From Mayamaea pseudoterrestris (taxonomy: Eukaryota), in the NCBI GenBank assembly GCA_027923505.1, contig BROI01000003.1, positions 248,001 to 312,000 on the forward strand: a stretch of DNA of 64,000 nt, given 5' to 3'. This document shows, piece by piece, positions 1-63,684 of the stretch. Numbering within the stretch: the stretch's first letter is position 1; every line of letters begins with the position of its first letter. The notes under the pieces are model-generated. The model was not told the origin of the DNA. It did no database searches and saw only the letters and a list, made by a program, of their open reading frames with translations. Position numbers and translations under genes: made by a program.

Positions 1-1606
1 ACGGCGAAAGCGTTTCGTAGGAGAATCCAACACTGACGAATAAGACTCCCGTTAGCAAAAAGCCATATAGTTGCAACCGAAAGCGCCCAATCGCCTCATG
101 ATCTAGCAACAAGGCCGCTCCAAAATATCCACAGAGCGCCACCAACGAGTTGAGCGTGGCGGCTTGGGCAAACTGCCACAACGACGTTGTTTCTTGGCCC
201 GTCAGTGCCAATATAAAGGTGCTTTGAAAGAGCTTGTTGCCGTAAAAGGCAACGTCCCACAGCATCCAGCAAAACGACACGCCAAAGAGGCGGACGCCAA
301 AGTGTTGAAGCAGCAACATGTTGGTGCTAGCTTGCGGTGTTTTGGCGTTGCCATGTTCGGTCTCTTCGTACATTGGCGCTTCATTTAACATGACGTAAGC
401 ATCATCCACATCATGATCATATCGGACAGCGACGGATGGCGCCGATAGCGAGCTAACGGAGCTCGACGACGGACTCGGTTGCGGCAGCGGCCGGTGATTG
501 CTGGCATGTTGCTGCAAAAGTATCGCTGGTGCAGCAGCAGCAGCAGACAAGGTTGCGTCGTGATTGTCTTGGTGCTCGTGTCCTCTGGTAGAGCAAATAA
601 CGTTGGCTGATGCTTGTTGCTCGCCTTGGTGCAGCGTCAATGCTGCCGCCAGCATGTGTTGCTCTCGCTCATCCTTGTCCGTTTGCCAGGCTTGCGACTC
701 GCTCAAATGTTGACACCGACTCACCAAGACGTACGTCAACACGATTGCACCAATGCCATACATACAGCTCCATATGAATTGGAGGCGCGCCTTGTCGTAG
801 TTTTCGGCGCCGTTGCTGGTTTGGCCCGTCAGAAGGAGCAGCACCATCATGACGAGCGAGTTGCAAAAAATACCCACGCCCTGCATGCAAAAGACGAGTT
901 GGACGGCTCGACCGCGGTTCTGCTTTATTGCGTTTTCATTGTTTGGTTTTACTATTCCGTCATGTGTTGATTGCTGGCGCCTCGCTTCGGTTGCTGCAGA
1001 TTGTTGTTCGTTTTCTATGGTTCGCTCCGACGCTGAACTTGCCGAAAGCGGATACTCGCCTCCCACTCCAATGCCAAAGACGAACAAGAGTATTACCATG
1101 CACTGCACTAATTGTTTCGGACGAGATACCAATGATACGCTTGCCAGTGTCAAACCAATCGCACCCGTCGCCATGAGACTCGCCGTGGCAATGGATCCAC
1201 TCCGTCGACCAACGCGATTCGCCAGCAACCCAAAACCAACCATGCCAAACATGACACCAACAATGACACTATACGTCAGTGACTGCACGAGAGTGATGGA
1301 ACATTCGTCATTAGTGTCAAAGCAACTCGGCATGATTTCACTCCACAGCGGCTGCAGCAGCCCCAAGCTAAAGAGCATGTAGGATTCACCAAACAGTCCG
1401 AGACCCGGCCAAGCGCTTTCATTGAGCCAATTTTGAAACAGTAGTGAATATGAGTTTGAGCTGTTGGAGTTGCCATCCATGCTGCTTTGGTGGTAATGGC
1501 AGTTGTTGTCTGGTGCGGCATCATGCTGATGGGCAGCAGCAATTGAGATGGATCGATTATCGCGAGTCAAGCTCTCGTCTGAAGAAATTATATTCGACGC
1601 CATCAT
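1..1606 (-). CDS. MFS inorganic phosphate (or glycerophosphodiester) transporter, PHT1/Pho84-like; 3' end runs off the window
   Basis: Manual minus-strand translation (absent from the ORF track because there is no stop in the window): GLFGESYMLFS, LANRVGRR, FGIGVGGEYPLSASSASE (matches the PHT1 GGDYPLSATIxSE signature), WMLWDVAFYGNKLFQS. First in-frame ATG after a TAG is at 1606; an upstream exon cannot be excluded. Confidence 0.85.
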   Translation of the reverse strand, partial: MMASNIISSDESLTRDNRSISIAAAHQHDAAPDNNCHYHQSSMDGNSNSSNSYSLLFQNWLNESAWPGLGLFGESYMLFSLGLLQPLWSEIMPSCFDTNDECSITLVQSLTYSVIVGVMFGMVGFGLLANRVGRRSGSIATASLMATGAIGLTLASVSLVSRPKQLVQCMVILLFVFGIGVGGEYPLSASSASERTIENEQQSAATEARRQQSTHDGIVKPNNENAIKQNRGRAVQLVFCMQGVGIFCNSLVMMVLLLLTGQTSNGAENYDKARLQFIWSCMYGIGAIVLTYVLVSRCQHLSESQAWQTDKDEREQHMLAAALTLHQGEQQASANVICSTRGHEHQDNHDATLSAAAAAPAILLQQHASNHRPLPQPSPSSSSVSSLSAPSVAVRYDHDVDDAYVMLNEAPMYEETEHGNAKTPQASTNMLLLQHFGVRLFGVSFCWMLWDVAFYGNKLFQSTFILALTGQETTSLWQFAQAATLNSLVALCGYFGAALLLDHEAIGRFRLQLYGFLLTGVLFVSVGFSYETLSP

Positions 1607-1972
1607 ATCCTACGATGAAATGGCTGTGAGTAAACAGAGTCTTGACAATGTATACGCTGCGTCCGTCGTTCTTTTGTAGGCCATGGTCGACATTGGCGAT
1701 TGTCTTGCCTTACACGTCTCACTGGCAACTTGACTGTTAGTTTTCATTCCCGCTTACATTCAGCTACCTGCTTGAGCAAATGACTTGGCTCGGGCAGGGC
1801 ATTGTAGAGTACATCCACAGTGGGTTGTAAATAAGCAGATAAAGTTCACATTTACTTTTTTAGATTTTGTGTCAGTAGCCTGGCAAGGGTAAGCCAACTG
1901 CAAACTCATCCCATTTGCTTACAGGCAATGCGCGTTGCGCCGCTTTTAGCACTGCTGCTCCTGCGTTTTGTG

Positions 1973-3926
1973 CTATCCTAGCAGGTTGCTTCGTACACAC
2001 AAGACTGGGTTTTCTCGCAGATGAAAGAACAAGCTGTTCAAGTCGTGCTGGACGGCGTGGAGCAATCGGTAGCCCTTGACGCGGTTTCCCGCGTCAACCG
2101 TCATGTAGGAGCGCCCCGCAGCGTTCAATGTGCGTAGCATGGCAAGAGTCACTTGAACGTCCTTGTACCAATACTCAATCGGATCATCCTCGTCGTCATT
2201 ATGTAGGGGCGCTTTGTTTTCGTCGTCGTCATCGTCGATATCATAGTGAAAGAGTATGCCCTCCTCGTCTCTCTTATTCAGTACCGTAAGATCAACCAGC
2301 AACGAACGGTTCGCTTTTAACGCGCTCAGAAATCGTGGCCCAGGTCGTGTGCGCTTCCATATCAACGTCTGGAAGGATAGATACAGCTTTTGCAGCCGCG
2401 ACACTTTAGAAGTGACGAGTTTCGTCATGGCCCTGTCAATTGCGTCCATGGAGGGATCGAGCATGAATGGCAAACTCAATTGGCAAAGGCTTGGACAATT
2501 CGATGCCGCGAGAATGAGCGACGGCAAAACGCCATCAACAACAATGCCGTTGATTTTGTTCCACACTCTCAAATTGATATCATCAATATCAAGTGTTTGC
2601 AGGTTCATACGCGGAAGATGTTGCGCCAACGTTGTAATGAAGCGTAACAGTTCAGCGCGTCGAGTCTCTGGCCAAAATGATATTCTCAGTTCGTCGACTG
2701 CAACGCTCGAGACAGCCTCGGCGAATCGGTTGCCATCACTCACGTGCAGATCTTCATCCATTGCAATAGTCATTTCGCGCTGCGGGCGTTGAGTCTCACC
2801 TCGCTCTTGGAGGTCACGGGCTAAATGCCGCACATTATCATCCACCATTTTCTTTACATGTTGATAAGAGGAGCCAAAGGTGCCAAAGTCGGCGATATAC
2901 AGGCGCTCAAGTGACATAATACTTCGCAGCGCCGGCAGAACAGTGCAGCAGGAGTCCACTGCCAGCCCGTAAGCCAGTAATCTCAGGCAGGGGTTTTTTC
3001 CGCAAAGCTCCCGCGAGGCTAATATAATCTTCGTCGTCTCTCGTCGACTCCAAATCAAGTCTGTATAGCCGCAAGTAACGGGTCTGCCGCATGATGCGAA
3101 TGGCAGCACTGACAGCGAGCATATTGTCGTCGCGACATTCGCAGTAGATTGTGACATCCTCGAGCGTGGGAATGGACGCCAATGTTTGGCACAACCATTG
3201 CCATCGATCATTGTACGCATCAACCCAAGGCATGCTTTCAAACGTAAGTTTTTCGATCAGTGAACTCTTCAACACACTCAAGTGCTGCGCTGCCTCATCC
3301 GTCGACAGCCTTTCGAACTTCTCCATATAGTCGCTACCAAAAGTCACGTGCAGTTGACGGGACTCAGCATGATCGCAAGACTTTCGATCTGATGCAGCGG
3401 CAGCTAGCTGTTGTGCTAGTTTATGTACCTTGCTCGCCCCGCAACACTTGTCGTTACTCTCAGTGTGTATGCTCCTATCCTCTCTATTGTGATACCTGTC
3501 TACGTAGCTAATGGATACCTTGACGGGCAAGCTTTGGTCCTCGCTGTCTGATGCGGGCAAGTTTGTGTCCTCGCTGTCTGATGCGGGCAAGATTTGGTCC
3601 TTGCTGTCTGGTGCTTTGAAAGCATAAATTGCCACCACTATCATCGCCAGAACCATTGCGCATCCAGTATAATATAAGGTGTATGGCGTACTTTCGTTTT
3701 CATAGAGCTCGGCAAGCCTTTCATAGAGGCAATCGAGTACAGGTAACCGCGCCTTTGAGGCGGCAATGCACTGGAGAAATCGATAAGATGGATGTTTTGC
3801 AGCACACATTCTTGAAAGTGCGCGCAACTGCAGCCGTCGATTTCGTCTTGTAGTCACATCTAACCCGCAATACTTGCGAATGATTCGCAAATCTCCAAGT
3901 TGGAGAGCAGCCGTTTTTTGCGTCAT
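1973..3926 (-). pseudogene. RNI/LRR-like diatom orphan-family protein with an N-terminal TM segment, split by one frameshift (pseudogene or sequencing error)
   Basis: ORFs 2907..3926 and 1973..3241 align consecutively to the adjacent paralogue 4131..5888 (DYISLAGALR|NPCLRLLAYGL vs DYTCLAGALQDCPSLRSLKYGL). The shift lies in an A6 run at ~2994-2999. Shared C-terminus LNxxGRSYM...LFFHLRENP.LC. Confidence 0.7.
3524..3612 (-). repeat. 30-bp in-frame tandem repeat, ~3 copies (PDSKDQIL / PASDSEDTNL / PASDSEDQSL)
   Basis: cgggcaag...gtcctcgctgtctgatg recurs with a 30-nt period. Confidence 0.85.
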
Positions 3927-4130
3927 TCCCGCTTGAGTATTCAGCTACTGTACGTGTAACTGCAGTCGGCTGGATATACGGACTACCGCGTAGACACAGC
4001 TGAATGAAAAAGGATCGCAAAGCATTCGCTTTTGGCAACCGCATCAAATCTAAACCTTGTGGGCAAAGTTGATTACTGAGTTTATTAACACTCTCATCTA
4101 AACTACGATAGTACCATTGGTCAGCTGCCA

Positions 4131-5888
4131 TTAGGGCTGACCACAGCGCCAGCACAATGGTGGGTTCTCCCGCAAGTGGAAGAAAAGGCAGTTTAAATTG
4201 TTCCCTGCCTTAACTAACAATTCAAACCCTTTGTTGTAGTCATTAGTATCACGCAGCATGTAGCTCCGACCCCACCTATTCAGCCGTCTCAGCATCGTGA
4301 CAGTTTGTTGCACGTTTTCACGCCAGAGTAGGTGGTCCTCCACGTCTTCTTCTTCATTGTCACCAACGTTCTGCAAATGCTGAAAACTGACATAGACACG
4401 GAGTGCGTAGTTTCTCTTCAACGCACAAAGAAAATTGGGCTCAGCTTGCTGGAGTTTGCCATTCCTGGTGATAATTGTAAGGCTAAGTGACTCCAGCCGG
4501 GAAATATGCGATTCAAAGAGGCACACCAAGGCATCATCCACGACTTTTGCGTAACGTCCAAGGGCTGGTATAGGAGGCAGCATCATTCTGCGCAGAGTCA
4601 GGCTTTTTGACGCTGAGCAAATGAGTAACGACAAAGCCTCAGCGTTCGTTGAGCCATATGGATTAATGTAGATTTCATGTATATCAAGTAGCTCAATATA
4701 TTCCATGGCAGAAATGTTCAGAGCTAGTGCGGATAGAAATTTTGATAACTCGGCGGTGCGAGCTTCAGGCCAGAATGATATATGTAGATCGTAAACCAAG
4801 GACTGCGAAATCGCTTCAGCTAAGCGCTTGCCATCCATCACGTGCAGATTTGTAAGAGATAATGAATCAGTTGCAATGTCTTCAATCCCGCCGCAAAATG
4901 CTTCAAAAGCATCCGTTGCCAAGATGCGAAGGCCATCCAATGCAAGTTTGCATATCCGACAGCCAGTTATTAGATTAGCGAGGGCATTTGCGTCTTCCAT
5001 AGCAAACCTTTCATGTTCGGAAAAATCGGGGGAAATCAAAAGACTGATTGGGGCGTTTCTTTGCAAAGAAGACAGAACTGCACGGTATGAATTCGTTGGT
5101 AAGCCATATTTAAGTGACCGCAAGCTGGGGCAATCCTGTAGAGCTCCGGCGAGGCAAGTATAATCGACATTGCCACCATCCAGCCACTGTGGACTACCAA
5201 CTGCTATAGTAAGGGTGTCAACATGCTGCAGATGCTGAATGGCAACAGATACAGCTTGTATGGTATCTGTATGACAATATATTGTGGCATCAGTAAGTGT
5301 TGGAATTGATCCTAGGGTCTGGCAAAACAATAACCACTTAGCTTGAAACCTTCCATCCGTTGGTAATTCCCAAAAGAGAACTTTGTTAATTGTTGCGTCT
5401 CGCAGCACCCTCAAAAGCTGTTCGGCTTCGCTGTCTACTAACGCAAAGAAGTGCCGCAAGTAGTCAAACTTAAACTCAACATGCACTTGCTGCGAATACT
5501 CAAAAGCAGAGTCGATTTTAGAGGCCGCGGCTGCGAGCTGCTCTTTGATAGTCCACACAAGACTCCTCCACGGGCGCCTCCAGTTAACTCTCAGTTCGAG
5601 CCGAGCAAAGTCACGACGGGCTTCTTTACGTGTCACCTTGTTCACGTAGGTAGTGTAGACTTGAACCCACTTACTAGCTTCATTTTCACAACAAGCAGTC
5701 AACACTGTCGCTAAAAGAAGTATAAATAGAAGATCGCATAAAAGGATGTAGTCTTTCCGACGAGGTGCGATCACTTTGCGCTGTTCAAGAATCGCATCGA
5801 TGCAATCGACAAAACTTTCGAGCCATGTGTTGAGCATGGATGAGAACCCAAACCGAAGCGGCAGCGGTGACGTCACGAAGACGGTCAC
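4131..5888 (-). CDS. RNI/LRR-like orphan-family protein, paralogue of 1973-3926; native 5' end replaced by LTR sequence
   Basis: 585-aa ORF whose first ~21 codons (MTVFVTSPLPLRFGFSSMLNT) lie inside the 5' LTR. Shares QLAAAAS, CQTLxSIPTL, ISFWPE and FFHLRENP with its neighbour. Confidence 0.75.
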   Translation of the reverse strand: MTVFVTSPLPLRFGFSSMLNTWLESFVDCIDAILEQRKVIAPRRKDYILLCDLLFILLLATVLTACCENEASKWVQVYTTYVNKVTRKEARRDFARLELRVNWRRPWRSLVWTIKEQLAAAASKIDSAFEYSQQVHVEFKFDYLRHFFALVDSEAEQLLRVLRDATINKVLFWELPTDGRFQAKWLLFCQTLGSIPTLTDATIYCHTDTIQAVSVAIQHLQHVDTLTIAVGSPQWLDGGNVDYTCLAGALQDCPSLRSLKYGLPTNSYRAVLSSLQRNAPISLLISPDFSEHERFAMEDANALANLITGCRICKLALDGLRILATDAFEAFCGGIEDIATDSLSLTNLHVMDGKRLAEAISQSLVYDLHISFWPEARTAELSKFLSALALNISAMEYIELLDIHEIYINPYGSTNAEALSLLICSASKSLTLRRMMLPPIPALGRYAKVVDDALVCLFESHISRLESLSLTIITRNGKLQQAEPNFLCALKRNYALRVYVSFQHLQNVGDNEEEDVEDHLLWRENVQQTVTMLRRLNRWGRSYMLRDTNDYNKGFELLVKAGNNLNCLFFHLRENPPLCWRCGQP

Positions 5889-6038
5889 ATTTAAGTAAGC
5901 GCGGTAAGCGGCAACCGAAGGAGTGGATCGAGGACGATCACTTCTTGGAGAAAATAAGTAAAGTGGTTTTATTGACTCTGTTCTGCTTAATCATTAGTGT
6001 CGCTTCAAGGGCGCGCAAGATATATTCTAGATCCAACA
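5828..6038 (+). repeat. 5' LTR (211 bp)
   Basis: TGTTGAGCATGG...TCTAGATCCAACA, identical to 10840-11050. Confidence 0.97.
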
Positions 6039-6052
6039 TTTTCTCCAAGAAG
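6039..6052 (+). promoter_or_regulatory. Primer-binding-site position; complementary to the element's own LTR rather than to a tRNA 3' end
   Basis: TTTTCTCCAAGAAG is the exact reverse complement of CTTCTTGGAGAAAA (5941-5954); no TGG start. Confidence 0.85.
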
Positions 6053-6065
6053 CGAGTGAAAAGAC

Positions 6066-9000
6066 ATGTCTTCGACGAGCAATACTCCGACGACAGGAGC
6101 GGCGTCGAGCGGTGGAGGTGCACCTCCCGCTCCGCCAGCAAGCGAAGGAAACCGACGCAACCGTCATTATCGTCGTGGGAATCGTGCTGGGAATCGTTCC
6201 GGGAATCAAGGCAATGGTAACAGACTCAACGGACCGAGTCGTGCGCCGAGTGGAAATTTCCAAGGAAGCGAGCCGACGCTCGCTGGATTCATCTACGACT
6301 ATAACGGTTCGCGCGATCCCGATGGATTCATCCGTACGACGAACGAGATCATCACTTTCGTCGGGCGCTCCTACAAGAAATATACCAAGGAGCTGCTCAA
6401 GGGCATGCGCAACGTGGAACTGGAGATTCCTGACGAGCCTGCACGTCCAACGAAGGATGCCGACACGACGGACTCGGACTGGTCCATAATGCTCGAGGAA
6501 TACAAGGCCGACAAGAAAGAGCATGTCGAGCGCGTGCGTGTATACTCCGACTTCCTCGCTGGTCTCTACGCCGTGTTGCATGGACAATGCACGGAGCGTA
6601 TGAAGGATCGTGTCAAGTCGCACGCCAAGTTCCGAGACGCCGAGGAGGACACGGACGGAATTAAGTTGCTGGCGATTATCAAGGAGATCTCGCATACGTA
6701 CGAAGGGCGCTGCAAACTTGTGGATCAAGTCGTGGACATTCAAGCTGAGTTGTTCGGACGTACTCAAGGAGCGCGCGAAAGCCTGCAGAAATATTACGAA
6801 AGCATGGTCACGCTGGCAGACGTGGCGAAGGCGGTTGGCGTCACGATGCACAACGAGATTGTGGCGTTGAACATTGCCAAGGATGACAATCGTAACAAGG
6901 CGAACAAGGAGGATATCAAGGCCGCCGAAGAGCTCGAGCTTGCGATGCTTTTCGTGCGTGGCGCAACGGGCGAATACGCTGGGTATTGCAAGCACTTGCG
7001 CAACTGCTACCTCGACGGGCACGACAACGTCCGTTTGACGATCCACGATGCATACAACATCATGCAGCGTCGTGAGCATGCGGATGGAGAAGCCACGTTG
7101 CCAACGAACGAGGGCGTGGCGTTTCACACGACTGGTACAGCGCGTGACCCTCCCAGATGCTGGACCTGTCAACAGGTTGGTCATGTGCAGCGAGACTGTC
7201 CTACGAGAACGGAGTCTACGGAGAGTGCGCCGGCTGCAGAGGCTAGTGGGGCGCAGCACTTCACGCTGGGTAGCGAGGAAGAAAGCGATGACGACGATGA
7301 GGTCGGATACATGTTCGCGCAGCCGCCGAAGGTGAACATCTCGAAGAAGGCTGTGCTCTTGGACAATCAGTCGACAGTGGATCTGTTCTGCAACGCCAAG
7401 ATGCTGACGAACATTCGCCCGGTGCCAACGTGGATGGTGATCAAGTGCAACGCTGGTACAGTAAGGACGAACATGATGGGCGACCTGGAGGGCTATGGTC
7501 CGGTGTGGTGGTATCCGCAGGGACTGGCGAACATTTTGAGTTTGGCGCAAGTCCGCAAAGAAGTTTACCGTGGAGTATCTCATGCACGGCGTGGATCGTC
7601 CAATGTTCGTTGTGGAGAAGCCGGATGGTAAGCAGCGAGAGTTTGTCGAGACTGACTCTGGGCTGTATGTTTGCGAGAGCTTTTCGAAGGGCAAGCGCAG
7701 CGATGTCAAGGATGGAGTGGCGATGTTGACTACGGTAGACGATAACCGTACTAACTACACCAATGATGACTATTTACGCGCTGTTAGAGCTAGGGAACTG
7801 CAAATCAAAATTGGACGGCCAAGCCTCAAGGATTACCTGCGCATCGTTACTAGCAATCAGTTGCCGAACTGTCCTGTGACGAAGGCCGACATCCTGGCTG
7901 CTGAGCACATCTTTGGACCAGATGTTGGCTCGTTAAAGGAAAGACGACGCGTCGCGCGTCGCATCTGGTGAAGCCTGCGATTGTTGAGCAGCTTCCACCG
8001 GCTATCATGAGTCGCTATCGAGACGTTACTCTTTGTGCTGACATCATGTATATCAACAAAGTCCCTATGTTGGTGACGTTCTCCCGCAGCATTCGTTTTG
8101 CTACGGTTGAGGTGATTCAAAACCGTACGCTTCCGGTTATGTTGAAGGCAATCGAGTCTGTGTTGAAGATTTACGCACGCGGTGGGTTCCGTGTCGTCGC
8201 GGCTCTGATGGATGGGGAGTTCGCTCCAATGCTTGGCGCGTTGGCTGATCTCGGAGTGGCGCTCAATGCGACATCTGAGGATGAACACGTTGGCGAAATT
8301 GAACGTTTTATCCGTGTCGTGAAAGAACGGGTGCGCGCGACATACAACACGTTGCCATTTAAGCACGTGCCGGCACGCTTGGTTATCGAAATGACGAAGT
8401 CTGCCGTGTTTTGGTTGAATGCGTTTCCGAACGAGCGTGGCATTTCGAAGGATCTCAGTCCACGCACTATTGTGACTGGTCAGACAGTTGACTTTAATCG
8501 GCATTGCAAGTATGAATTTGGTCAGTATGTGCAAACGCATGAGTCGCACAGCAATGACATGCAGGCGCGCACGATCGGTGCGCTGGCTCTGCGCCCGACT
8601 GGTAATGTGCAGGGTGGGTTTTATTTCCTCAGTTTGTCTTCGGGCAAAGTTCTGAATCGTGGGCACGCTACGCCTTTGCCCATGCCTGATGATGTCATTG
8701 AGCGCGTGCATCGTCTCGCTCGTCAACAGAAGGCCAATCCGGGCATCGTGTTCATGGACCGCCACCGTGTTGCGGAGGCTGCTGAGCCAGTCATGTGGCA
8801 CGAAGATGACGCCGAGGATGATGATGACTCTGATTATGATGACGACGCTTCTCGCGGTGACGACGACTCTGCCGGCGGAAGCGAAGGAGTGAATGCGACC
8901 GATGACGACGACGACGACGACGATGGTGCTGACGGCGCAATCGAAGGAGTGCCGAACGACGAGGATGGTGAGGCCATTGACGGCGAACTTGACGACGCGC

Positions 9001-10910
9001 CAGCCGTGGATGATGGCGAAATTGAAGGAGTGCCCGATGAAGGCGAAATTGAAGGAGTGCCAGCTGCTGCAGACGAAGAGGATTTCGATGCGCGCTATGG
9101 CCCACGCACTGGTCGGTATGGCCTGCGTGCGCGCAAACCTCGCTCGTTCGCTCATTTGTTCACGCTCGACGCTGCAGAGGAAGTGTCGGAGCCACTCGTC
9201 ACGGCACAGATGAATATGCGACAAGGTTTAAAGGCTTTTGGCGATGCTGGAGTGGAGGCAGTGCGCAAGGAAATGCAGCAGCTACGACAGCCACGTCATG
9301 AAGGTAGTCCCACAATGCACTCTGACTCCGCAGCAGCGCAAGGACGCTCTGGCGTATTTGATGTTTCTCAAGCGCAAGAGATGCGGGACTGTGAAGGGAC
9401 GCGGATGCGCGGATGGACGCAAGCAACGAGCATACACTGCAAAGGAAGACGCAGCATCTCCAACGATAGCGACAGAGGCCATCTTTCTGACAGCTATCAT
9501 TGACGCTATGGAAGGGCGCGAGGTTGCTGTGGTTGATGTACCGGGTGCTTTCATGCAAGCGGAAATGGATGAGTTGGTGCACGTTCGTTTCACTGGGAAG
9601 ATGGTGGAGCTACTGTTGGAAATTGATCGCGAGATGTACGAGCCTTGCGTCACAATGGAGAATGGCGAGAAAGTCATGTATGTTGAATTACTCATGGCGC
9701 TTTATGGTACGCTTCGAGCAGCGCGACTATTCTGGGAGAAGTTGTCCGCAAAATTGCTTGAGTGGGGCTTCGAGAAGAACCCGTACGATCCGTGTGTGTG
9801 CAACAAGATTGTCAATGGGAAGCAAATCACCGTGGGATGGCACGTGGACGATTTGAAGATTTCGCACGTCGACGTGAGCGTAGTGGATGAGTTCATCGCG
9901 CAGATGGATGAGGAGTTTGGCAAGGAGACTCCAATGAATAAGTCACGCGGAAAAGTGCACGACTACCTCGGCATGGTATTGGACTATACTAAGCCTGAGA
10001 AGTAGCAATCAACATGGTTGACTATGTGAAGAACATCCTGCATCATGCGCCAGACGACATGGATGGAACGGCAGCTACTCCGGCAGCCAGTCACTTGTTT
10101 CAGATATCGGAAAATCCTGTCATGTTGAGCGAAGCGAAGAAGCAGATTTTTGTGACGATTGTGATGCAGTGTCTGTATCTGAGTCAGCGAGCGCGACCGG
10201 ATATTCGCACAGCGATTTCTTTCTTGAGCACGAGGCTGCAGCAGCCTGACGAAGACGACTATAAGAAGGCTGCAAGAGTGATTAAATATTTACGCGGAAG
10301 CGTGGACATGGTGTTGACGCTGAAGGCGGACCAGTCCGGGATAGTCCAGTGGTGGGTGGATGCGTCGTACGCGGTGCACCCAGACATGAAGGGTCACACT
10401 GGTGGAACAATGACACTTGGCCAAGGATCAGTGTACAGTACGTCGGCTAAACAGAAGTTGGTAACAAGAAGCTCGACGGAGAGCGAAGTTGTGGGAGTTC
10501 ATGATGTGCTACCGCAGTTGCTGTGGACAGGATATTTTCTGAAGGCGCAAGGTTTCGGGGTCAAAGACACGAAATTGTATCAAGACAATATGAGTTCAAT
10601 GCTGTTGGAAAAGAATGGCAGAAGCTCAAGTACAAAGCGCACGCGACACATGAATGTTCGGTACTTCTTTGTGAAAGATCGCGTGGCAGCTGGTGAAGTC
10701 AACATTGAGCATTGTCCGACCGGAGACATGGTCGCGGATTTCTTCACGAAACCATTGCAGGGAGCCCAGTTTGGCAAGCTCCGCAACCTGGTTATGAATC
10801 TGGCCTCGAGCAGTAAGTACTACTCGGCCCAAAGGAGTGTGTTGAGCATGGATGAGAACCCAAACCGAAGCGGCAGCGGTGACGTCACGAAGACGGTCAC
10901 ATTTAAGTAA
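6066..10910 (+). CDS. Gag-Pol polyprotein (~1615 aa when restored) interrupted by 4 frameshifts
   Basis: Zn knuckle CWTCQQVGHVQRDC; protease LLDNQST; integrase CADIM..MDGEF..EHVGEIERFIRVVKER; RT DVPGAF..LYGT..WHVDDL; RNase H WVDAS..SSTESE..QDN..ADFFTKPL. Shifts at ~7558, ~7938, ~9285 and ~9997. Confidence 0.95.
10831..10839 (+). promoter_or_regulatory. Polypurine tract
   Basis: AAAGGAGTG immediately 5' of the 3' LTR. Confidence 0.8.
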
Positions 10911-11050
10911 GCGCGGTAAGCGGCAACCGAAGGAGTGGATCGAGGACGATCACTTCTTGGAGAAAATAAGTAAAGTGGTTTTATTGACTCTGTTCTGCTT
11001 AATCATTAGTGTCGCTTCAAGGGCGCGCAAGATATATTCTAGATCCAACA
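10840..11050 (+). repeat. 3' LTR (211 bp)
   Basis: Identical to 5828-6038; contains the Pol stop codon (TAA 10908-10910). Confidence 0.97.
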
Positions 11051-11173
11051 ACCCTGCGTCTTTCCTGCAAGGTAGTCGACGGTGCTGTCGAACTTCTCCT
11101 TCACGTTCTCGGTGAAGGTCTTGGTGGGGGCGTTGTCGGAATGATCCGGAGCGACGTTGTTTGGGTTGACCAT
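11051..11173 (-). pseudogene. 5' part of a small hydrophilic (LEA/hydrophilin-like) gene truncated by the retrotransposon
   Basis: aacaaaATG then MVNPNNVAPDHSDNAPTKTFTENVKEKFDSTVDYLAGKTQG with strongly C/G-ending codons; reads into the LTR (CWI-stop at 11039). Confidence 0.6.
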
Positions 11174-11591: not shown

Positions 11592-13232
11592 TTACAGCAT
11601 TAGCAGCTGCGGCTGGTTCATATACTGCCGAAACGCCGACAGAAACAAGGCTGCAGTTGGTTCATCAACCGCTCTGCGGTCGGCAGACAATCTAGCCGTC
11701 ATGATGGTTTGAATTACCGGCGATTTCTGGTCAACCGCGCCATCCACATACGGTGTTGGAACCACTCGTCGGGAACCTCCTCCTACCGCAAGAATGGCAG
11801 CTTGCGGAGGGTTAATCACTGCTGAAAATTCGTCAATTCCAAACATGCCCAGGTTGCTAATGCTAAAGGTTCCGCCCTGATACTCGGCCGGAGCCAACTT
11901 GCCCTCGCGAGCGCGGCCGGCCAAATCCTTCACCTTGTTGGTAATCTCTGCTAGCCCCAGCTGGTCCGTGCCAAAGACAATCGGTGTGATCAAGCCAGTT
12001 GGCGTTGCAACCGCGACGCTTATATCAACTGTTTCGGATACATGAATGGCTCCGTCAGTGTTTTGAATCGTTGCATTTACTCGAGGTACATCTCGTAGCG
12101 CCATGGCGCAGCACTTGATGACAAAGTCGTTGATGCTAATCTTGACATCAAACTCATTGACTAGTTGCTTGCGAAGCTTCATTATTTGATCCAGCTGGAC
12201 GGGCATGGCCGTGTAAAAGTGCGGAACGTTGCGCTTGCTGTCTGTCAATCGACTAGCAATGATTTTGCGCATCTTGTTATTGGCAACATCTTCGTAAGAG
12301 CCTGTTGTATGTATCGTCTCAGCAACCAAGTCTTGAAGTGTCAATGGAACATGAGCTCTTGTAGTCGCTGCAGGTGCTGGTGGAACTGCATTAGTCGTTG
12401 CAGTCGTTGGTGCAGCTGCTTGATCGTTCGTGCTGGATGGTGCTTTGGCAGGTTCTTCCTTTCTCAAGGCTGGCATACTTCCATCGACAAGTGCCTGCAT
12501 GACATCTCCCTTGGTAACCCGTCCTCCTTTTCCACTTCCAGACAGAACCGTCGCATCCAAGCCCTTGGATTCGGCCAAGTGTCGAGCCGACGGCAGCAAG
12601 ATGGAACCACCACCGCTCATGCTTGTCACAGGGGAGGCGACAGATGACGTCGAGTCTTCCTTGATCTCTTCTTTAGATTCTACCGCAGCTGCAGCTGCGG
12701 CATCCTTACTTGCAGCAGGACTATCAGCTACATAATTAGCAAACGCTGCAACATCACCTTCTTCCTCGACAACCACACAAATAGGCGTTCCCACCGCTAC
12801 ACTCTCATCCGATCCAGCCTGCAACAAGATTTTAGCCAAGATTCCATCATCCTGCGCCTCAAAGTCGACGCTTGCCTTGTCGGTATCAATGCTGCAGAGT
12901 GCCGTGCCGGCACCAAAGGAGTCGCCCTCCTGGACGAGCCACTGGGAAATGCTTCCGGAATCCATGGTTGGACTGAGGGCTGGCATGGGGAAAAGTATAT
13001 GCGGAGGATAATCCTCTTGAGCAAACTGAATGGAGCTGCATGAGTATAGTCGTTTCGTAGATGCTGGCCATGATGAAGGACAAACAGAGAAAGCAGCAGA
13101 TGGCGCGAATGTTCGACTGGAGTTCAAGCTGCATGACGGTGTAGCTGTCGTTGAAAAGCTAGCGCCTGGAGCAGCTGACCTCGCCAGAATGCGTCGTGAT
13201 ATGTTTCTTCGAAGGAACACAGCAGTCGACAT
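11592..13232 (-). CDS. Pyruvate dehydrogenase E2-family protein (lipoyl + E3-binding + 2-oxoacid_dh domains), mitochondrial; probably E3BP/PDHX-like
   Basis: MPALSPTM..IDTDKA (lipoyl Lys); GSGKGGRVTKGDV; GTFSISNLGM..INPPQ; C-terminal SADRRAVDE in place of DHRxxDG; Arg/Ser-rich presequence from ATG 13232. Confidence 0.9.
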   Translation of the reverse strand: MSTAVFLRRNISRRILARSAAPGASFSTTATPSCSLNSSRTFAPSAAFSVCPSSWPASTKRLYSCSSIQFAQEDYPPHILFPMPALSPTMDSGSISQWLVQEGDSFGAGTALCSIDTDKASVDFEAQDDGILAKILLQAGSDESVAVGTPICVVVEEEGDVAAFANYVADSPAASKDAAAAAAVESKEEIKEDSTSSVASPVTSMSGGGSILLPSARHLAESKGLDATVLSGSGKGGRVTKGDVMQALVDGSMPALRKEEPAKAPSSTNDQAAAPTTATTNAVPPAPAATTRAHVPLTLQDLVAETIHTTGSYEDVANNKMRKIIASRLTDSKRNVPHFYTAMPVQLDQIMKLRKQLVNEFDVKISINDFVIKCCAMALRDVPRVNATIQNTDGAIHVSETVDISVAVATPTGLITPIVFGTDQLGLAEITNKVKDLAGRAREGKLAPAEYQGGTFSISNLGMFGIDEFSAVINPPQAAILAVGGGSRRVVPTPYVDGAVDQKSPVIQTIMTARLSADRRAVDEPTAALFLSAFRQYMNQPQLLML

Positions 13233-13454
13233 GTTTGTTACAAGGAATAGTACCAGTAGTCGAAGCGATGAGACTGCTCGCCCACTTTTGCTGCTGCATG
13301 CGTCGCTGTACGCGACGAGAGATGATTTAAGTACCGGTACGATGCAGTGGAGTCTCGTTACGACGTCGACGTCCTCATTCATCACGATATATTATGATGC
13401 GTCGACCATGAAAATACATCACCTCCTCTGGCGGATGAAATTCTCGACATCACC

Positions 13455-15061
13455 ATGAAGAATCAGCGCAGCTTTATATCTCTAATAGCATTACTTCCTG
13501 TCAGTGGATGGTTACTACAAATTAGACATCCGACTTCGAGGATACCAGCGAGCCATTTCCGTCGACAGTCACGCATCGATGCAGCATCGGATGGAATTCA
13601 CAACACTTCGCTTCTTGACAACGGCAATAATATATCGAAGGAACAAGACCAAGTAGAAACAACTCGAAAGTATAACCTTGGCTTGGGCAAAAATCGACCA
13701 GTCGTCGTTGATAGTAGCAGCAGCAACAAAGTCAACGGAGACTTTAATTCTTCCTATTGGATCGCTCCCGATCCAGTCGCTAAACCAGCCACTTATCGAC
13801 CACCAAATGGAGCACCAAATGATGCAGCAATATCAGAAACAATACCAAGGACGAATGGCGAGCCGCAAGCAATCAAAACTCGTCGCATGGTGGCCCGAGA
13901 CAATGATGCGCAACGACTGCGAGGTGTAATTGATGAGGAACATTTCAATGCGCCAAAAAACATGGATGAACCGTCGCAGCATGAACAAGCAGCCGACTCT
14001 ATCAGTAACAGCATTGGGAATGATATATTAAGTCAGTCATCTAATCCTACGGTTGCACGCCCTAAGGCCTTTTACCCAGACATTGACTTGTCCATTCCCG
14101 ACTCTGTCTACTGTCCAGCAAACGGAACGGACCTCGTCTGGGACTTGCTGCGATGGGAAGCCTACCAACAGGCCCAGCAGGAACCTTTACTGGTATCATT
14201 TTTGCATTCGACCATTTTGAATCATCGCTCGCTCGAAAGTTCATTGGCCTTTTTGCTGGCGAATCGCCTGCAGAGCCCCGCCATGATGATTTCCACGCAG
14301 CTGCAGTCGCTGATACTAGAGGCACTCAAGTGCAGCACCTTTCGACGAGCCCTTCGCGCCGACATGATGGCTGTTCGCGACCGAGATCCTGCCTGCGCCT
14401 ATCTTCCTGATGTATTCTTGTACTTCAAAGGCTTTCACGCACTGCAGAGTCATCGGGTCGCTCACGTGCTGTGGGAGCAGGGTCGACAGGTGCTGGCACT
14501 CTACTTGCAGTCGCAAGTGAGTCAAATCTTTCAAATTGATATTCATCCCAATGCGACGCTGGGGAGGGGTATCATGCTGGATCATGGAACCGGCATTGTG
14601 ATTGGAGAAACGGTGAGCTCTCATGTGTTTTAGTGCAGAACATCTCGATGAGTGCATGCGCTTGTCTTGTCCAGTTTCTAGACTGCCATCGGAATAAGCG
14701 ACTTACATTTTTCTAATGTTTGCTTTGACAGGCAAGCGTCGGCCATAACTGCAGCATATTGCACCACGTGACATTAGGTGGATCCGGCAAGAAGGGACTC
14801 ATTCGACATCCACAAGTAGGCGATGGCGTCTTGCTTGGTGCTGGCGCCACTGTCTTGGGTTCAGTCTCTATTGGCGACGGCAGTCAAGTGGGCGCAGGCA
14901 CGTTAGTTATTGTCGACTTGCCTCCCCACTGCGTGGCGGTTGGCGTTCCAGCGAGAATCATTGGAAGCTTTGTGGATGTGACGCAGCAGCCTTCGCGATC
15001 GATGGATCAAATGATGGATGACAAGAATATTATCTTTACGTTCGAGTCGGATGGTATATAG
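13455..15061 (+). CDS. cysE: Serine O-acetyltransferase, probably plastid-targeted; exons 13455-14612, 14732-15061
   Basis: DRDPAC..KGFHALQSHRVAH..IDIHPNA..DHGTGIVIGET|ASVGHNCSILHHVTLGGSGK..RHP; GT-AG intron 14613-14731. Confidence 0.95.
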
Positions 15062-20062: not shown

Positions 20063-21490
20063 ATGAAAGCACGGAGCACTAGACCGTACGAAAAATGGAC
20101 TTGTATGCAGTGCATCATACAGCTGGAGGGTAGCAATGCGGGTGTGAGCGATGATAGGCTGACCAAAGACTACAAGCTGATCATTGACAAGAGCGATACA
20201 TTTACAAAACGATGTATCCGGCAAGCCGCGAGACTGTTGGACGCTAGCGGGGTTGAAACAAGTCCCGTAGCACTTTGTTCCGGACTGTCTTTCCTTGACA
20301 TTGTGATGTGTTGCTGGGCCATTGACCATTGTCGAGCCTCTAAGCGTGGTGCACAGCATGCTTTAGAGAGCATTGCACAAAACAATAAAATCGGGCAGCT
20401 ACAACAGCAGATATCTTTCCATGTGATTGTGGGGGGTTGTTGGGCCATTGACCATAGTCGAGTCTCCAAGCGTTATACACAGCATGCATTTAAGTGCATT
20501 GCTATCAAAGAAGAAATCGGGCAGCTCAAACTGCAGAATAAGCGGCAAGCCGCCAAGAATTCTCAGCTTACTTGGCAAAACCAGCAACTCGTGGAGCGAG
20601 GAGCGCAACAAGAAACTCATCGCGACACTGAGATTGGCCCGCAGCCGGCCAAATTGATTGCTGCTCATGAAGCCGAGTTGGTCGAATTGAACTTACGACT
20701 AAAACAACGTGACAATGCTTTGGCCGAGAGTGAAAACAAGCAGAACCGACTCACTGAGCAAAACGTGGATCTCACTCAACAAAATGTGGACCTCTCGCAA
20801 CTAAATTCGGACCTTAACAAGCAATTAGGCATGGAGCTTCTAAACAACAACAACGAAATTGCGCGACTCAAGCAGAAGCACTTAGCTGCTCTCCACCCTG
20901 AGCAGCATATGGTGACCTTGCAAGAAGCCGAGCAAGAATTTTTGTCCGATGAGGTTGCTGCGTTAAGGAACAATATTTCTGTACTTGCGGGGCACAGCTT
21001 ATCCCTTTTTAGTGAGATTATTGAGCACGACGGTGAAATTGGTCAGCATTTTTGGGGATTCGAGCACTTAGTCGAACAGGCAGCCAAGAAGGACTGTGCG
21101 AATAATTTGCTCAAGCAACGTCTAAACATGTTCACGCGGCGACTTAAAAAAAGCCAAGAACGGGCCGTCCAACATGCAGTTGAGGTCGAGGAGCTGAAAC
21201 GCGACCTAGACTTTTGTTTCGACGAGCTTGCCGATGAGACTTATGGTCATAGAAAGATGTTGTCTACAATAGTGGAGTGGATCTTGAGGCGTTGTCAAGA
21301 TCATGTCCATCGCTTGACGGATCTCGATAACGAGCTTGTTTCATTACAGAACAAGCTCAACAAGCGCATGAGTTTAACGCCAGTTAAACAAGCCAACGTG
21401 CAGCGCCAGGAAAAGAATCACGAAGATGGCGGGTCTATTGGTCGCGTTGGGGCTGTTGAAGCCAACCTTGCGAATGGAGTGCGAGTTTAG
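20063..21490 (+). CDS. Orphan coiled-coil protein with an internal 42-aa duplication
   Basis: 475-aa ORF with Q/E/L heptads (LTEQNVDLTQQNVDLSQLNSDL) and two CWAIDH..SKR..QHA..IA....IGQL units. Confidence 0.55.
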   Translation: MKARSTRPYEKWTCMQCIIQLEGSNAGVSDDRLTKDYKLIIDKSDTFTKRCIRQAARLLDASGVETSPVALCSGLSFLDIVMCCWAIDHCRASKRGAQHALESIAQNNKIGQLQQQISFHVIVGGCWAIDHSRVSKRYTQHAFKCIAIKEEIGQLKLQNKRQAAKNSQLTWQNQQLVERGAQQETHRDTEIGPQPAKLIAAHEAELVELNLRLKQRDNALAESENKQNRLTEQNVDLTQQNVDLSQLNSDLNKQLGMELLNNNNEIARLKQKHLAALHPEQHMVTLQEAEQEFLSDEVAALRNNISVLAGHSLSLFSEIIEHDGEIGQHFWGFEHLVEQAAKKDCANNLLKQRLNMFTRRLKKSQERAVQHAVEVEELKRDLDFCFDELADETYGHRKMLSTIVEWILRRCQDHVHRLTDLDNELVSLQNKLNKRMSLTPVKQANVQRQEKNHEDGGSIGRVGAVEANLANGVRV

Positions 21491-26199: not shown

Positions 26200-26505
26200 A
26201 CTCCCGGCTCATTATATTTAATCAGCCAGTTCACATTAAGGGAGTGGCAATCCATCATTCTGTTGTGCATAGCATGGCCAACACCTGCCGGTAGTGATGT
26301 CCGCCGCACTCGTCTAAAGGTTGGACACTTTTTAATGGGCAGCGATGACGAAACTCCCGGCTCATTATATTTTATCAGCCAGTCACAATTGGGATATTAT
26401 TCTCATCATTTTGTAGTGCATAGCTTTGCCAACACCTGCCGGTTGTGATTTTAGCCGCACTCGCTCAACGATTGGACCCTTTTTGACGGGCTGCGGCGAC
26501 GATAC
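26200..26505. repeat. Diverged 153-bp tandem duplication (2 units)
   Basis: actcccggctcattatattt.atcagccagt at 26200 and 26353; gccaacacctgccggt.gtgat and gccgcactcg in both units. Confidence 0.9.
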
Positions 26506-27780: not shown

Positions 27781-30249
27781 TCAACGCTTTTTACGCTGTG
27801 AGTCTGTCAGGAAGGGATTTGCTTTCGTTTGCGGTGAAGGAAACGATGTCTCTGGGGGTAGTCCCAAGGCGCGGCAAGCGTTGTTGCACACATGAGTCGC
27901 AAAGAATGCTTTCATTCCCTTTTCACCAAGATCTGTTCGCCCAAACTTCAAATTCTGGAGAAACAGGTTTTTCTTGCGCGTGTGAACCGCTGGGTCCGTG
28001 AATATGAACTCCCGCCGGCCATCCGAATGAATCTTCAAAGAACCTTGTAGGTCGACCACTATAGATTGTCTATTGCTTTTGAGGTAGGAGAAGTGGCTAA
28101 AAGCTTGAGCAAAGTCACCATCAGGTATCACTTCGTCTGTCATAATTGGCGCGGCACAAACATGTTGTCCGTCTACTAGATGAGCAAAATAGTCCGTGCC
28201 TTCGCAGGAAAAAAATTGAGTCAGATTGGCGTCTTGCACAAACGCTTTGCCCCAACTGTCGTCATTCTGAGAGCTTTCTTCTTCCGACTGAGAAATTTCG
28301 TCATCCGATTCTTCCGCCACAGCCGCCAGCAATGGAGCAATTTTGCCTCCCATGTTCGTTTTTCGACCAACTTTGGATGCCATTGCCGCCTTGTTTACCC
28401 CATCTTCAGCAGAGGTGGCCTCAAAAAGGTCACCATAATTACCGTTATATTTTGTATACTCTCCGTCAATGAATGGCTCGACAAGAACATTGTAAGTCTT
28501 TGAGTCGTCGACAAGTTCAAATATGAGCGGCTCAAGGAAGCAAATCCGAGGAAAGGCATGCACGCGTTGCTGAACGTCTGCTGCGTTTCGTGCAGCTAAA
28601 TTATCGAAATACTCATTAAACTTATCCGCACATCGGGATGCGAAAACCTGCGCCGTCATGAATTGTATATGATCCCTGCGATTATGTTCGTCAGGACGAT
28701 CATGAACAAACCTTGACTCCTTTGCCACCATGACTGGCCCAATAAAATTGTCGTCATCATTGAGGAAACGAAACTTATAAGCGACGCGTTCCGCTCCTTC
28801 GCCAAAACATGCTCGCTTCCAAGCAACATTGTAAGATATAATGTCCTTCTTTTGCACAGCTCCTTTTCGCCGCTCCTCAAGCATAGCGCAACAATCCTCT
28901 TTTCGGTGTCCGCGCCACATACCGTCAGCAATGCATCCGCTGCATAGATACGTTGCTTTGCACCCATTACAGATTTCGCCCCTTGTCCCTGTCTCCCAGG
29001 CTTGATCAGCAACAAGCGAGAAACAGGAATGGCAACGACGGTCTAAAACTCGACAAAAGTCACCGTCTCTAGTATTCCATTTCCAAACATGCTTGGTGTA
29101 TTGACTGCTGTTTGAGGCACGAAAGACTCGCCAATCAATCGAGGGCACATGGTCATCAGGTGTGTCGCCGCGCTCCCGAAGAATATCGATGCGGACCGAC
29201 TTTCCTGGGGCCGTCTTTCCTCGCACGGTTTGCGAGAGTTCCCTCTTGGTTAACGCAAGCGTCGAAACATGATACGAAATAATTCGAGAAAGAGAATCTA
29301 CATCAAAGCTTGATGTGCATGATGGATGGTCAAACCAACCATTTGCTCCGTATGCTGCTGCTTCGTTGGCCATTTTGATTAAAACGCTGAAATCTTCATC
29401 TCGGTCTGCAAGGCCAACGCAGCCGAAAGTCAAGCGACGACCAAATTGAGATGCTATTTCCCCAACGGTCTTTACAATGTTGCTAGTCGCCCCTGCATCT
29501 GATGGTTTACCATCCGAGCAAAAAAAGACGGAGAGACCGACTGATCCCAAAGTGTTTAGTTGCAAGAGTTTTTGAACCTGTGTCAACGCAGGAAGGTAGT
29601 TTCCATGGCCTTCTGGCCGGAACTTCGACCATTCTTTCATGGCCACGAGCTTGTTATAAAGAGCCCAGGTCATTGGCTCATGCCGTATAGCAACCTTTGC
29701 TCGCTTGCCCATCAGCACGACGGAGACTATATCAAACCAGTTCTTTTCCTTGTCCAAGTGAGCTTTCACAAAGTCACGCGCGAGGCATGTCCATACTCCA
29801 TCAGACCGACAGCGGGCTCCATTTACATCGTCGGTTCGCATTGATCCGGACATGTCTACAACGAGAATGTGATGATTCGTCCATCGCTCCTTCTTCGACA
29901 ACGCATCAAAGTCCTCGTGACTGCGCAAATACTGTTCAGTGACGTGTTCCGTGTCCTTCATAACCATGACTGGATCGACAAACTTGGAACCAGACTTTGT
30001 GCCGCACTTGTCCTTGGTGGGGTAACAAGTTATAGCACGATTCGTTTCAGCGTCGTGCACATAATACGTTCCGCCGAAGGTGTACCCGACTCTGCCATTT
30101 TCAAGTGGTTCGGACAAGCCCATTCGTCTGGCTTTCTGACAAAGAACCTTGGCAATGTTACGTTCCTCACAGCGTTCTCGATGGTGTGACGTTGACACGA
30201 GTGTCGAGTTGGCGAGGGAATAGCTGTAGAATCGCTGGGTGCTTGTCAT
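27781..30249 (-). CDS. vWA-alpha-kinase (eEF2K/MHCK family) with an N-terminal DUF4258-like domain and a MYND-like Zn finger, copy A
   Basis: vWA ILVVDMSGSM..SDGKP; C2-C2-C-C-H-C finger; alpha-kinase FGEGAER, VAKE, VEPF..KYNGN, AFSHFSY, VVDLQG, FTDP, FG.TDLG..G..FF..H.CN..C. Confidence 0.9.
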   Translation of the reverse strand: MTSTQRFYSYSLANSTLVSTSHHRERCEERNIAKVLCQKARRMGLSEPLENGRVGYTFGGTYYVHDAETNRAITCYPTKDKCGTKSGSKFVDPVMVMKDTEHVTEQYLRSHEDFDALSKKERWTNHHILVVDMSGSMRTDDVNGARCRSDGVWTCLARDFVKAHLDKEKNWFDIVSVVLMGKRAKVAIRHEPMTWALYNKLVAMKEWSKFRPEGHGNYLPALTQVQKLLQLNTLGSVGLSVFFCSDGKPSDAGATSNIVKTVGEIASQFGRRLTFGCVGLADRDEDFSVLIKMANEAAAYGANGWFDHPSCTSSFDVDSLSRIISYHVSTLALTKRELSQTVRGKTAPGKSVRIDILRERGDTPDDHVPSIDWRVFRASNSSQYTKHVWKWNTRDGDFCRVLDRRCHSCFSLVADQAWETGTRGEICNGCKATYLCSGCIADGMWRGHRKEDCCAMLEERRKGAVQKKDIISYNVAWKRACFGEGAERVAYKFRFLNDDDNFIGPVMVAKESRFVHDRPDEHNRRDHIQFMTAQVFASRCADKFNEYFDNLAARNAADVQQRVHAFPRICFLEPLIFELVDDSKTYNVLVEPFIDGEYTKYNGNYGDLFEATSAEDGVNKAAMASKVGRKTNMGGKIAPLLAAVAEESDDEISQSEEESSQNDDSWGKAFVQDANLTQFFSCEGTDYFAHLVDGQHVCAAPIMTDEVIPDGDFAQAFSHFSYLKSNRQSIVVDLQGSLKIHSDGRREFIFTDPAVHTRKKNLFLQNLKFGRTDLGEKGMKAFFATHVCNNACRALGLPPETSFPSPQTKANPFLTDSQRKKR

Positions 30250-30770
30250 GCTGGTGGCGCTTGCACTGCTGATTGCTGTCTTGTATGATGGCTATGGAAC
30301 TGTGGTATGAAGGCTATCAGAGTTTTTTGCAGCAGAAACGTCGGCGATTGGAACGGTCATGTGCTGAGGCAAGTTTAGTCATCGCTCATGATTTATGATG
30401 CTCGTTGCTTTTTCTTCAAAGAAGAAACGGATCATATGTCGGACCGGTAATGCTCGAGTCGGTCCGTTACTCGTCATTTCAACGTTAGCGAAAGCGCTAC
30501 AAACCCAGCACCATCATCTTATGGTTGATCCATTTACTCGCGCACATGCAGTATACGACTATGACATCGTCATCGCAATACATATTAAAAGTAAAGGCAT
30601 CACTTTGGTATGCTTGCATGCGCGTTCTTCATAAAGAACGACCAAGCGCGCGAGAATCGACATCCAACAGCGCTGCATTGACCTATTCGTACCATATTTT
30701 CGATCACTTTGTTTGGTGTGCGCATAAGTTCTAACTTACTTATTAAGCTATCTATGCACACTGACATATC

Positions 30771-33206: not shown

Positions 33207-33580
33207 GATCCGATGTGTATTTTATTTGCGGTATCAGCTACGATAAATCGCTCCTTGTACTTGCTGAATTAAATAGTCGCAAAGACGCAGCAACAAGGCG
33301 TCTAGAAATTTTGAATATAACAGAGACGTCTAGTCAATAAAGACTTCTAGTTACAGTATAGCGCAGTGATCAGTCGTTCTCCAAGTTTTCTTGTTACGGT
33401 TGGCGACGAAAACGGCCACGATCCTTTGACATTCAACACCATCTCTTTCACGGCAGGTGGCCATGGTTCGCTGGATTGGCGATATGTCTTACCGGTTTTT
33501 AAGCGTCGGACCGGTACTGGACAAGACCAAGCCGCGCTCCACCATGGAACATTCGACTATCTTTGAGGCCGATACACACC

Positions 33581-63655: not shown

Positions 63656-63684
63656 TTATATATATTATATATATCTATATATAT
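63656..63684. repeat. Imperfect (TA)n tract between convergent 3' ends
   Basis: ttatatatattatatatatctatatatat. Confidence 0.8.

Follow-up and report, generated by a model that had tools for sequence, protein, structure and literature searches.

Covarying complementarity between LTR and primer-binding site points to self-primed reverse transcription in a diatom-type Ty1/copia lineage

A Ty1/copia element of the pennate diatom Mayamaea pseudoterrestris probably primes reverse transcription with the 5' end of its own RNA, and its primer-binding site (PBS) would be copied anew from that primer in every cycle. The element, 5.2 kb long with two identical 211-nt long terminal repeats (LTRs), lies in a stretch of 64,000 nucleotides of contig BROI01000003.1 that was analyzed as a whole (the window; all positions given here count from its first letter). 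The complementarity of the PBS to the element's own LTR, the fixed register of this pairing, its co-variation among relatives, and a PBS that is not of the tRNA type are direct observations.

The direct repeat that delimits the element spans 213 nt (5826–6038 and 10838–11050, identical copies). For the LTR proper, the most likely length is 211 nt (5828–6038 and 10840–11050), because a relative with a perfect 5-bp target duplication (locus L018) begins with TGTTG, because the junction AGGAGTG/TGTTG recurs 33 times among the loci described below, the window included, and because one public contig spans exactly 5828–6038. The earlier note had ended the 5' LTR at 6038, which stands; the extent of the repeat and of the LTR proper is corrected here accordingly. 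The genes follow the copia order, Gag-PR-IN-RT-RH, with the zinc knuckle and the reverse transcriptase (RT) recognized by Pfam and the protease, integrase, and RNase H by eye; the integrase gave no Pfam match in the window element. The features are as follows.

5828–6038, plus strand: 5' LTR, TGTTG...CAACA; U3 is 5828–5940, and R-U5 would begin at about 5941
5938–5942, plus strand: initiator-like TCA/CT, fitting TCAH+1W, with the predicted RNA start at 5941 (sequence, published motif)
5941–5954, plus strand: predicted 14-nt self-primer; T5955 may add a 15th pair with A6038 (complementarity, folding)
5997–6016, plus strand: small bulged U5 hairpin of 4 bp, a bulge, 3 bp, and a 5-nt loop (by eye, post hoc)
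6039–6052, plus strand: putative PBS, adjoining the terminal CA of the LTR and complementary to the element's own 5941–5954 (sequence)
6066–7631, plus strand: Gag, with a CCHC zinc knuckle at about 7155–7202 (knuckle by Pfam); frame break near 7557
About 7356–7373, in the Gag frame, plus strand: protease-like LLDNQS, assigned by its resemblance to the known protease motif (by eye)
7905–9231, plus strand: integrase core (D..D..E-like residues at about 8030–8340) and acidic linker (by eye)
9232–10002, plus strand: copia-type RT (Pfam RVT_2, E 2.2e-16, above the cut-off)
9999–10910, plus strand: end of RT, and RNase H ending in ADFFTKP (by eye; an ADxxTK motif is described in PMC5445492); the frame enters the 3' LTR
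10831–10839, plus strand: short polypurine-tract-like motif ending in AGGAGTG, directly 5' of the 3' LTR (sequence)
10840–11050, plus strand: 3' LTR, identical to the 5' LTR, with a second copy of the primer 14-mer at 10953–10966 (sequence)

No PBS follows the end of the 3' LTR. The RT carries GRGCADG and WHVDD motifs, where plant copia RTs have KARLVA and YVDD. The RNase H piece is 100% identical, and Gag 98% identical, to a 1477-aa polyprotein without stops (P0035), which carries the label Mayamaea pseudoterrestris at NCBI; when the RNase H piece was compared with PDB sequences, no match fell below E 0.21. A close copia polyprotein, P0040, is labeled as coming from a Comamonadaceae MAG and is likely eukaryotic contamination in a bacterial bin. 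The pol frame extends 71 nt into the 3' LTR (10840–10910), and the polypurine-tract-like AGGAGTG lies within coding sequence, where it coincides with a conserved RSVL protein end.

The window copy has no target duplication (CCATG at 5823–5827 versus ACCCT at 11051–11055), a lack that concerns this copy and not the family. Its left flank lies inside a long minus-strand frame (4131–5825) without a Pfam match, its right flank lies inside a different, short minus-strand frame with its ATG at 11173, and in a public contig the right flank is preceded by a different left neighbor. Frame breaks and indels near 7557, 7934, 9283, and 9996 are absent from the contigs of all four runs covered (of five listed), and those contigs also differ in letters from the window at 7029–7034 and 9291–9312; these indels and differences probably reflect errors of assembly or lesions in this particular copy. 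Because of the missing duplication, the other left neighbor of the right flank, and the frame breaks, we regard the window copy as probably a misjoin, or a recombinant between two copies, with local errors that leave the primer region unaffected. Contig depth over 5788–11050 is about 1,100–4,400 in run X1 and about 3,000–57,000 in runs X3 and X4, with flanks below 75; this depth, from runs whose kinds are not on record, is not a copy number and suggests a family that is high-copy or highly expressed. Two long contigs of run X2 begin at 5951 and end at 10978 (equivalent to 5966 of the 5' LTR), ends that may fit an RNA start at about 5937–5951; a hole between contigs proves nothing, and we do not count it. 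Elsewhere, the window holds host genes for a 2-oxoacid dehydrogenase E2 subunit (11592–13391, minus strand) and a serine acetyltransferase (13398–14633, plus strand), whose stop-to-stop frames abut back to back; related long frames in tandem (27781–30291 and 30771–33221, minus strand); and repeats at 3524–3613, 20288–20537, and 26200–26505, comprising one 3 × 30-nt repeat and two short local duplications.

The earlier note had observed that the 14 nt immediately following the 5' LTR (6039–6052) are the exact reverse complement of 5941–5954, that no TGG stands at the PBS position, and that the LTR arm directly follows a TCA (5938–5940); the sequence bears out all three. Between the arms lies a loop of 82 nt, where the note had put about 85 nt for its inferred fold-back. 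The helix comes to 15 bp, gaining one pair inward (T5955 with the last LTR base, A6038) and none outward. When the longest perfect complement (offset 0–3) to the preceding 213 nt was sought at 63,660 window positions, seven positions reached at least 12 nt, and an exact 12-mer at the position itself occurred only at 6038–6041, all of which are the PBS site. Shuffled LTRs reached 12 nt once in 20,000 trials and 13 nt in none of 20,000. In folding from 5941, the mean pair probability of the primer helix is 0.98, and the global folding z-score of 5941–6070 is only -1.9; the signal therefore lies in the placement of the helix and not in overall stability. No tRNA gene was found within the window.

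Relatives were gathered with an alignment of 17 Gag-protease sequences, namely that of the window and 16 of 31 matches. From the best 80 of 519 that were confirmed, 79 loci were taken from metagenome contigs; they are related to one another, and the counts that follow are not independent. Scans of viral contigs and of prokaryote genomes yielded no relatives. A blind search upstream of gag found a perfect stem of at least 12 bp in 29 of 39 regions, the window included, versus none of 39 gag-internal regions and 1 of 195 shuffles. Anchoring on the LTR end alone set aside 38 loci with too little upstream sequence and two without an anchor, leaving 39 relatives plus the window. Among these 40 elements, 36 pair at 12 or more of the 14 positions and 31 pair perfectly; in part of the rows as many as five LTR ends were candidates and the best one was used, a choice that the controls do not mimic. 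None of 200 offset 14-mers reached 12 pairs; 4000 composition-matched PBS shuffles reached 12 positions 117 times, 13 seven times, and 14 once; and when the PBS of one element was set against the LTR of another, 10/702 tests reached at least 13, every one between close relatives.

Four of the 40 elements fell short. For L004, the upstream sequence is only 69 nt long; L016 reaches 12/14 at an alternative LTR end (by eye); L019 carries a false anchor, and its true LTR gives 14/14; and L047 is decayed, with 10/14 pairs including two G-U, and was excluded from the positives. Mutated LTR ends also occur in L013, which has a 1-nt indel in the duplex (by eye), and in L042, whose duplex is perfect. 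With the LTR start as a second anchor, the junctions of L007, L019, and L050 pair at 14/14, all of them after TCA. L007 and L050 belong to seven further loci analyzed in this way; the other five, with at most 10 or no candidate, may be 3' LTRs or incomplete. Gag starts 16–72 nt beyond the LTR end in the 36 positives.

Co-variation of the two arms across relatives, the check that the earlier note had named for its proposal, is strong whether judged by two-sided changes, by RNAalifold, or with the second anchor. In 27 distinct arm/PBS pairs, we count 380 Watson-Crick pairs, no G-U pair, and four mismatches. On a Gag-protease tree (FastTree, 27 rows, median identity 33%, the window being a flagged long-branch join), 11 disjoint pairs of relatives (22 rows) show 42 compensatory two-sided changes versus three one-sided ones; several of these 11 pairs are distant, and using L035 in place of L008 adds one more one-sided change. 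RNAalifold, run on 19 of the 27 rows, predicts the 14-bp primer/PBS helix as the sole helix, with two-sided changes at 14/14 pairs, and the covariation score from the primer/PBS pair counts lies above all shuffled and slid controls. MAFFT placed five of the 19 rows out of register, the window among them; the G-U and broken helix cells of that alignment are therefore partly errors, and the anchored counts are preferred. In predicted folds, the cis duplex has a mean pair probability of at least 0.86 in 26/27 elements.

The outer edge of the duplex is equally regular. In all 36 positives, the arm begins directly after TCA, a triplet with a background of 0.019 per position; its +1 is always C or T, its +2 is always A or T, and its length is 14 nt in 28/36 and 15 nt in 8/36. 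Kadono et al. proposed TCAH+1W as a diatom initiator-like consensus (PMC4686930). The register of this motif would place +1 at 5941, and the RNA of the element is predicted to start at about that base; the motif as such is common, occurring in 68% of 80-nt upstream regions, and only its exact register is informative. None of the 27 distinct arm/PBS pairs has a PBS starting with TGG. In 8/27, the base 3' of the PBS could pair with the TCA triplet's A, against a background of T of 45/216; copying of the cap into this base by the RT is unsupported, with C in 11/27 versus 57/216 in the following bases. The primers of the relatives are about 89% A/T (11% G+C arms), unlike the window primer with its 5 G/C in 14, and arms of 89% A/T offer less scope for G-U and more chance matches. 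This bias might stem from overlap with a poly(A) signal.

We propose that transcription by RNA polymerase II begins at 5941, immediately 3' of TCA, and that the first 14 nt of the RNA (15 in some relatives) fold back over R-U5, as folding predicts, onto the 14 nt after the 5' LTR. Cleavage of the RNA would follow nt 14, with the RNase H of the element as the probable nuclease to judge by analogy with Tf1, and would leave a 3'-OH opposite the terminal A6038 of the LTR. The RT would then synthesize strong-stop DNA, starting at 6038 and ending at about 5955, and jump to the 3' R copy, and plus-strand synthesis would copy the still-attached RNA primer, so that the PBS would be rewritten in every cycle. 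In other retroelements, the PBS is normally restored by the copying of a tRNA primer during plus-strand synthesis. Rewriting from the element's own RNA would let the duplex sequence drift freely, keep it strictly Watson-Crick, and end it where the RNA is predicted to begin; each of these three features, the last as a sharp outer edge, is observed. Since the LTR end of a retroelement is set by the position of its primer, the primer must pair with the variable sequence that follows the LTR.

Accessory structures give a mixed picture. The U5 hairpin (5997–6016), seen by eye and post hoc, fits 14/27 elements versus 452/5400 shuffles, with two or three of the 14 matches at other offsets. It holds 17 G-U among 98 pairs; these RNAs therefore tolerate G-U elsewhere. 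Tf1 requires a three-duplex "pretzel" (PMC10085805). Its duplex between post-PBS and post-primer sequence reached p<0.05 in 1/30 elements here, with a Wilcoxon p of 0.33 for own versus cross pairings, in a test confined to 25- and 30-nt segments adjoining the primer. A stem at the end of U5, before the PBS, reached p<0.05 in 9/24 elements (family p=0.0006) in segments chosen post hoc, with p=0.88 for the window element. The U5 loop showed no sign of an intron, with no joints among the contigs of the four runs.

The alternative that survives best keeps the primer sequence and changes its source, which could be, in trans, a second packaged RNA, an abortive 14–15-nt transcript, or a small RNA from a solo LTR, or else a trimmed 3' R copy (10953–10966). 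Such a primer predicts identical complementarity, co-variation, and lack of G-U, so that sequence cannot separate cis from trans, and the third duplex, which guides cleavage in Tf1, was not seen here. Yet the cis duplex dominates the predicted folds, and the sharp outer edge at TCA sits poorly with a 3' R copy, which has U3 upstream. We consider a primer from any of these other sources unlikely.

Less probable still, and in our view quite doubtful, is that the helix is a regulatory RNA structure and another primer is used. The helix could mask a poly(A) signal, AU-rich and located within the 5' LTR, or it could control translation of Gag 14 nt downstream. Regulatory hairpins of this kind are known in retroviruses, the arm is very AU-rich, its partner occurs only after the 5' LTR, and the start of Gag lies 16–72 nt beyond the LTR end in the 36 positives. 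However, regulation leaves unexplained the fixed register, with TCA on one side and the terminal CA on the other, the length of 14–15 nt, and the absence of G-U next to a hairpin with 17 in 98 pairs, and it leaves open what else would prime 26 different PBS sequences. A regulatory role may be a second function of the helix.

Priming by a host tRNA or tRNA half, with an incidental self-match, is the copia default (PMC6317226), yet it is very improbable for these elements: their PBSs lack the TGG start, and the 26 distinct PBS sequences, each of which matches its own LTR and almost never another's, are too varied for a single tRNA to plausibly fit them all. An inverted repeat arisen by chance or an assembly artefact, for which the four indels and mismatched flanks of the window copy might speak as signs of assembly trouble, is refuted by the shuffle, offset, gag-internal, and cross-element controls, the same geometry being present in dozens of independently assembled relatives and no letter differences in 5941–6052 being among those listed for the contigs of the four runs.

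Self-primed reverse transcription with a re-copied PBS is thus the reading that we prefer. Beyond the single element, we lean towards a broader view, in which a copia lineage of diatom type, large and old, came to prime without tRNAs independently of the Tf1/sushi elements, with a 14–15-nt primer fixed by the host initiator, a U5 stem, and no pretzel. The PBS would be rewritten in each cycle, the absence of G-U would be the fingerprint of templated copying, and the copia RNase H or another nuclease would cut the RNA-RNA duplex by rules other than those of Tf1. In the literature found, only the Ty3/gypsy element Tf1 has been shown to self-prime, and among copia elements the mechanism has been predicted from complementarity. 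The present data extend this geometry to a whole copia lineage and add strong co-variation, a register that is fixed at the start, and the absence of G-U as a signature. It now becomes testable whether self-priming had more than one origin and whether the primer is the template from which the PBS is restored; because the family includes a stop-free 1477-aa member in a diatom that is in culture, such tests are practical. Annotation tools that demand a tRNA PBS would probably miss elements of this kind, and silencing by tRNA fragments at the PBS would presumably not apply to them.

The closest parallel in mechanism is Tf1. Tf1 has been shown to self-prime, and the same is proposed for Tj1 and other Tf1/sushi elements; in Tf1, the initial 11 bases of its RNA pair, and RNase H cleaves between bases 11 and 12 (PMC7175516, PMC4600332, PMC10085805; for RNase H cleavage, also PMC5341516). 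Tf1 and Tf2 of Schizosaccharomyces pombe, Tj1, Tosmo, and the Tf1/sushi Ty3/gypsy chromoviruses resemble the present element, on the reading proposed here, in that the PBS after the LTR complements the 5' end of their own RNA, without a tRNA. They belong to the Ty3/gypsy superfamily, whereas the element described here has the copia order, with the integrase preceding an RT that is RVT_2 and not Ty3/gypsy, and gave no chromodomain match. The primer of Tf1 is 11 nt long and that of this lineage 14–15 nt, the accessory duplex after the PBS is unsupported here, and self-priming in the present system is predicted from sequence. The element appears to work like Tf1 and is not a member of Tf1/sushi.

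Within copia, self-priming was predicted for the plant TAR lineage (Houba, Osr-1) from a match of at least 10 bp between the PBS position and the 5' LTR (PMC6317226). The statement of the earlier note that copia elements normally use tRNAs holds as a default, to which the TAR lineage is a predicted exception. TAR elements are alike in being copia elements with predicted self-priming and differ in their plant hosts and in a prediction drawn from complementarity alone.

The CoDi elements of diatoms (Blackbeard, Surcouf) share the diatom host, the copia order, and TG..CA ends; their reported size is 5182–8062 bp, with the window element near the low end, and CoDi6 families are reported to have a CCHC finger (PMC2806351). 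The earlier note mentioned a similar self-priming proposal for Blackbeard, which found no support, the main text of Maumus 2009 having no match for "priming," "Tf1," or "tRNA" (PMC2806351). Repeats of the Mayamaea pseudoterrestris genome are reported to be mainly Ty1-copia, in a main text with no match for "primer binding" (PMC9724779). Among the matches listed in our search, which left subscription journals and theses mostly outside, no paper on self-priming of a diatom element was found.

Fungal GalEa elements are likewise a copia clade without a tRNA PBS. Their Conserved Hairpin Site is situated entirely downstream of the LTR, with a conserved sequence, and its description reports that no complementary LTR sequence was found (PMC5445492). 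Unlike in GalEa, the pairing partner in the present lineage lies inside the LTR and varies freely.
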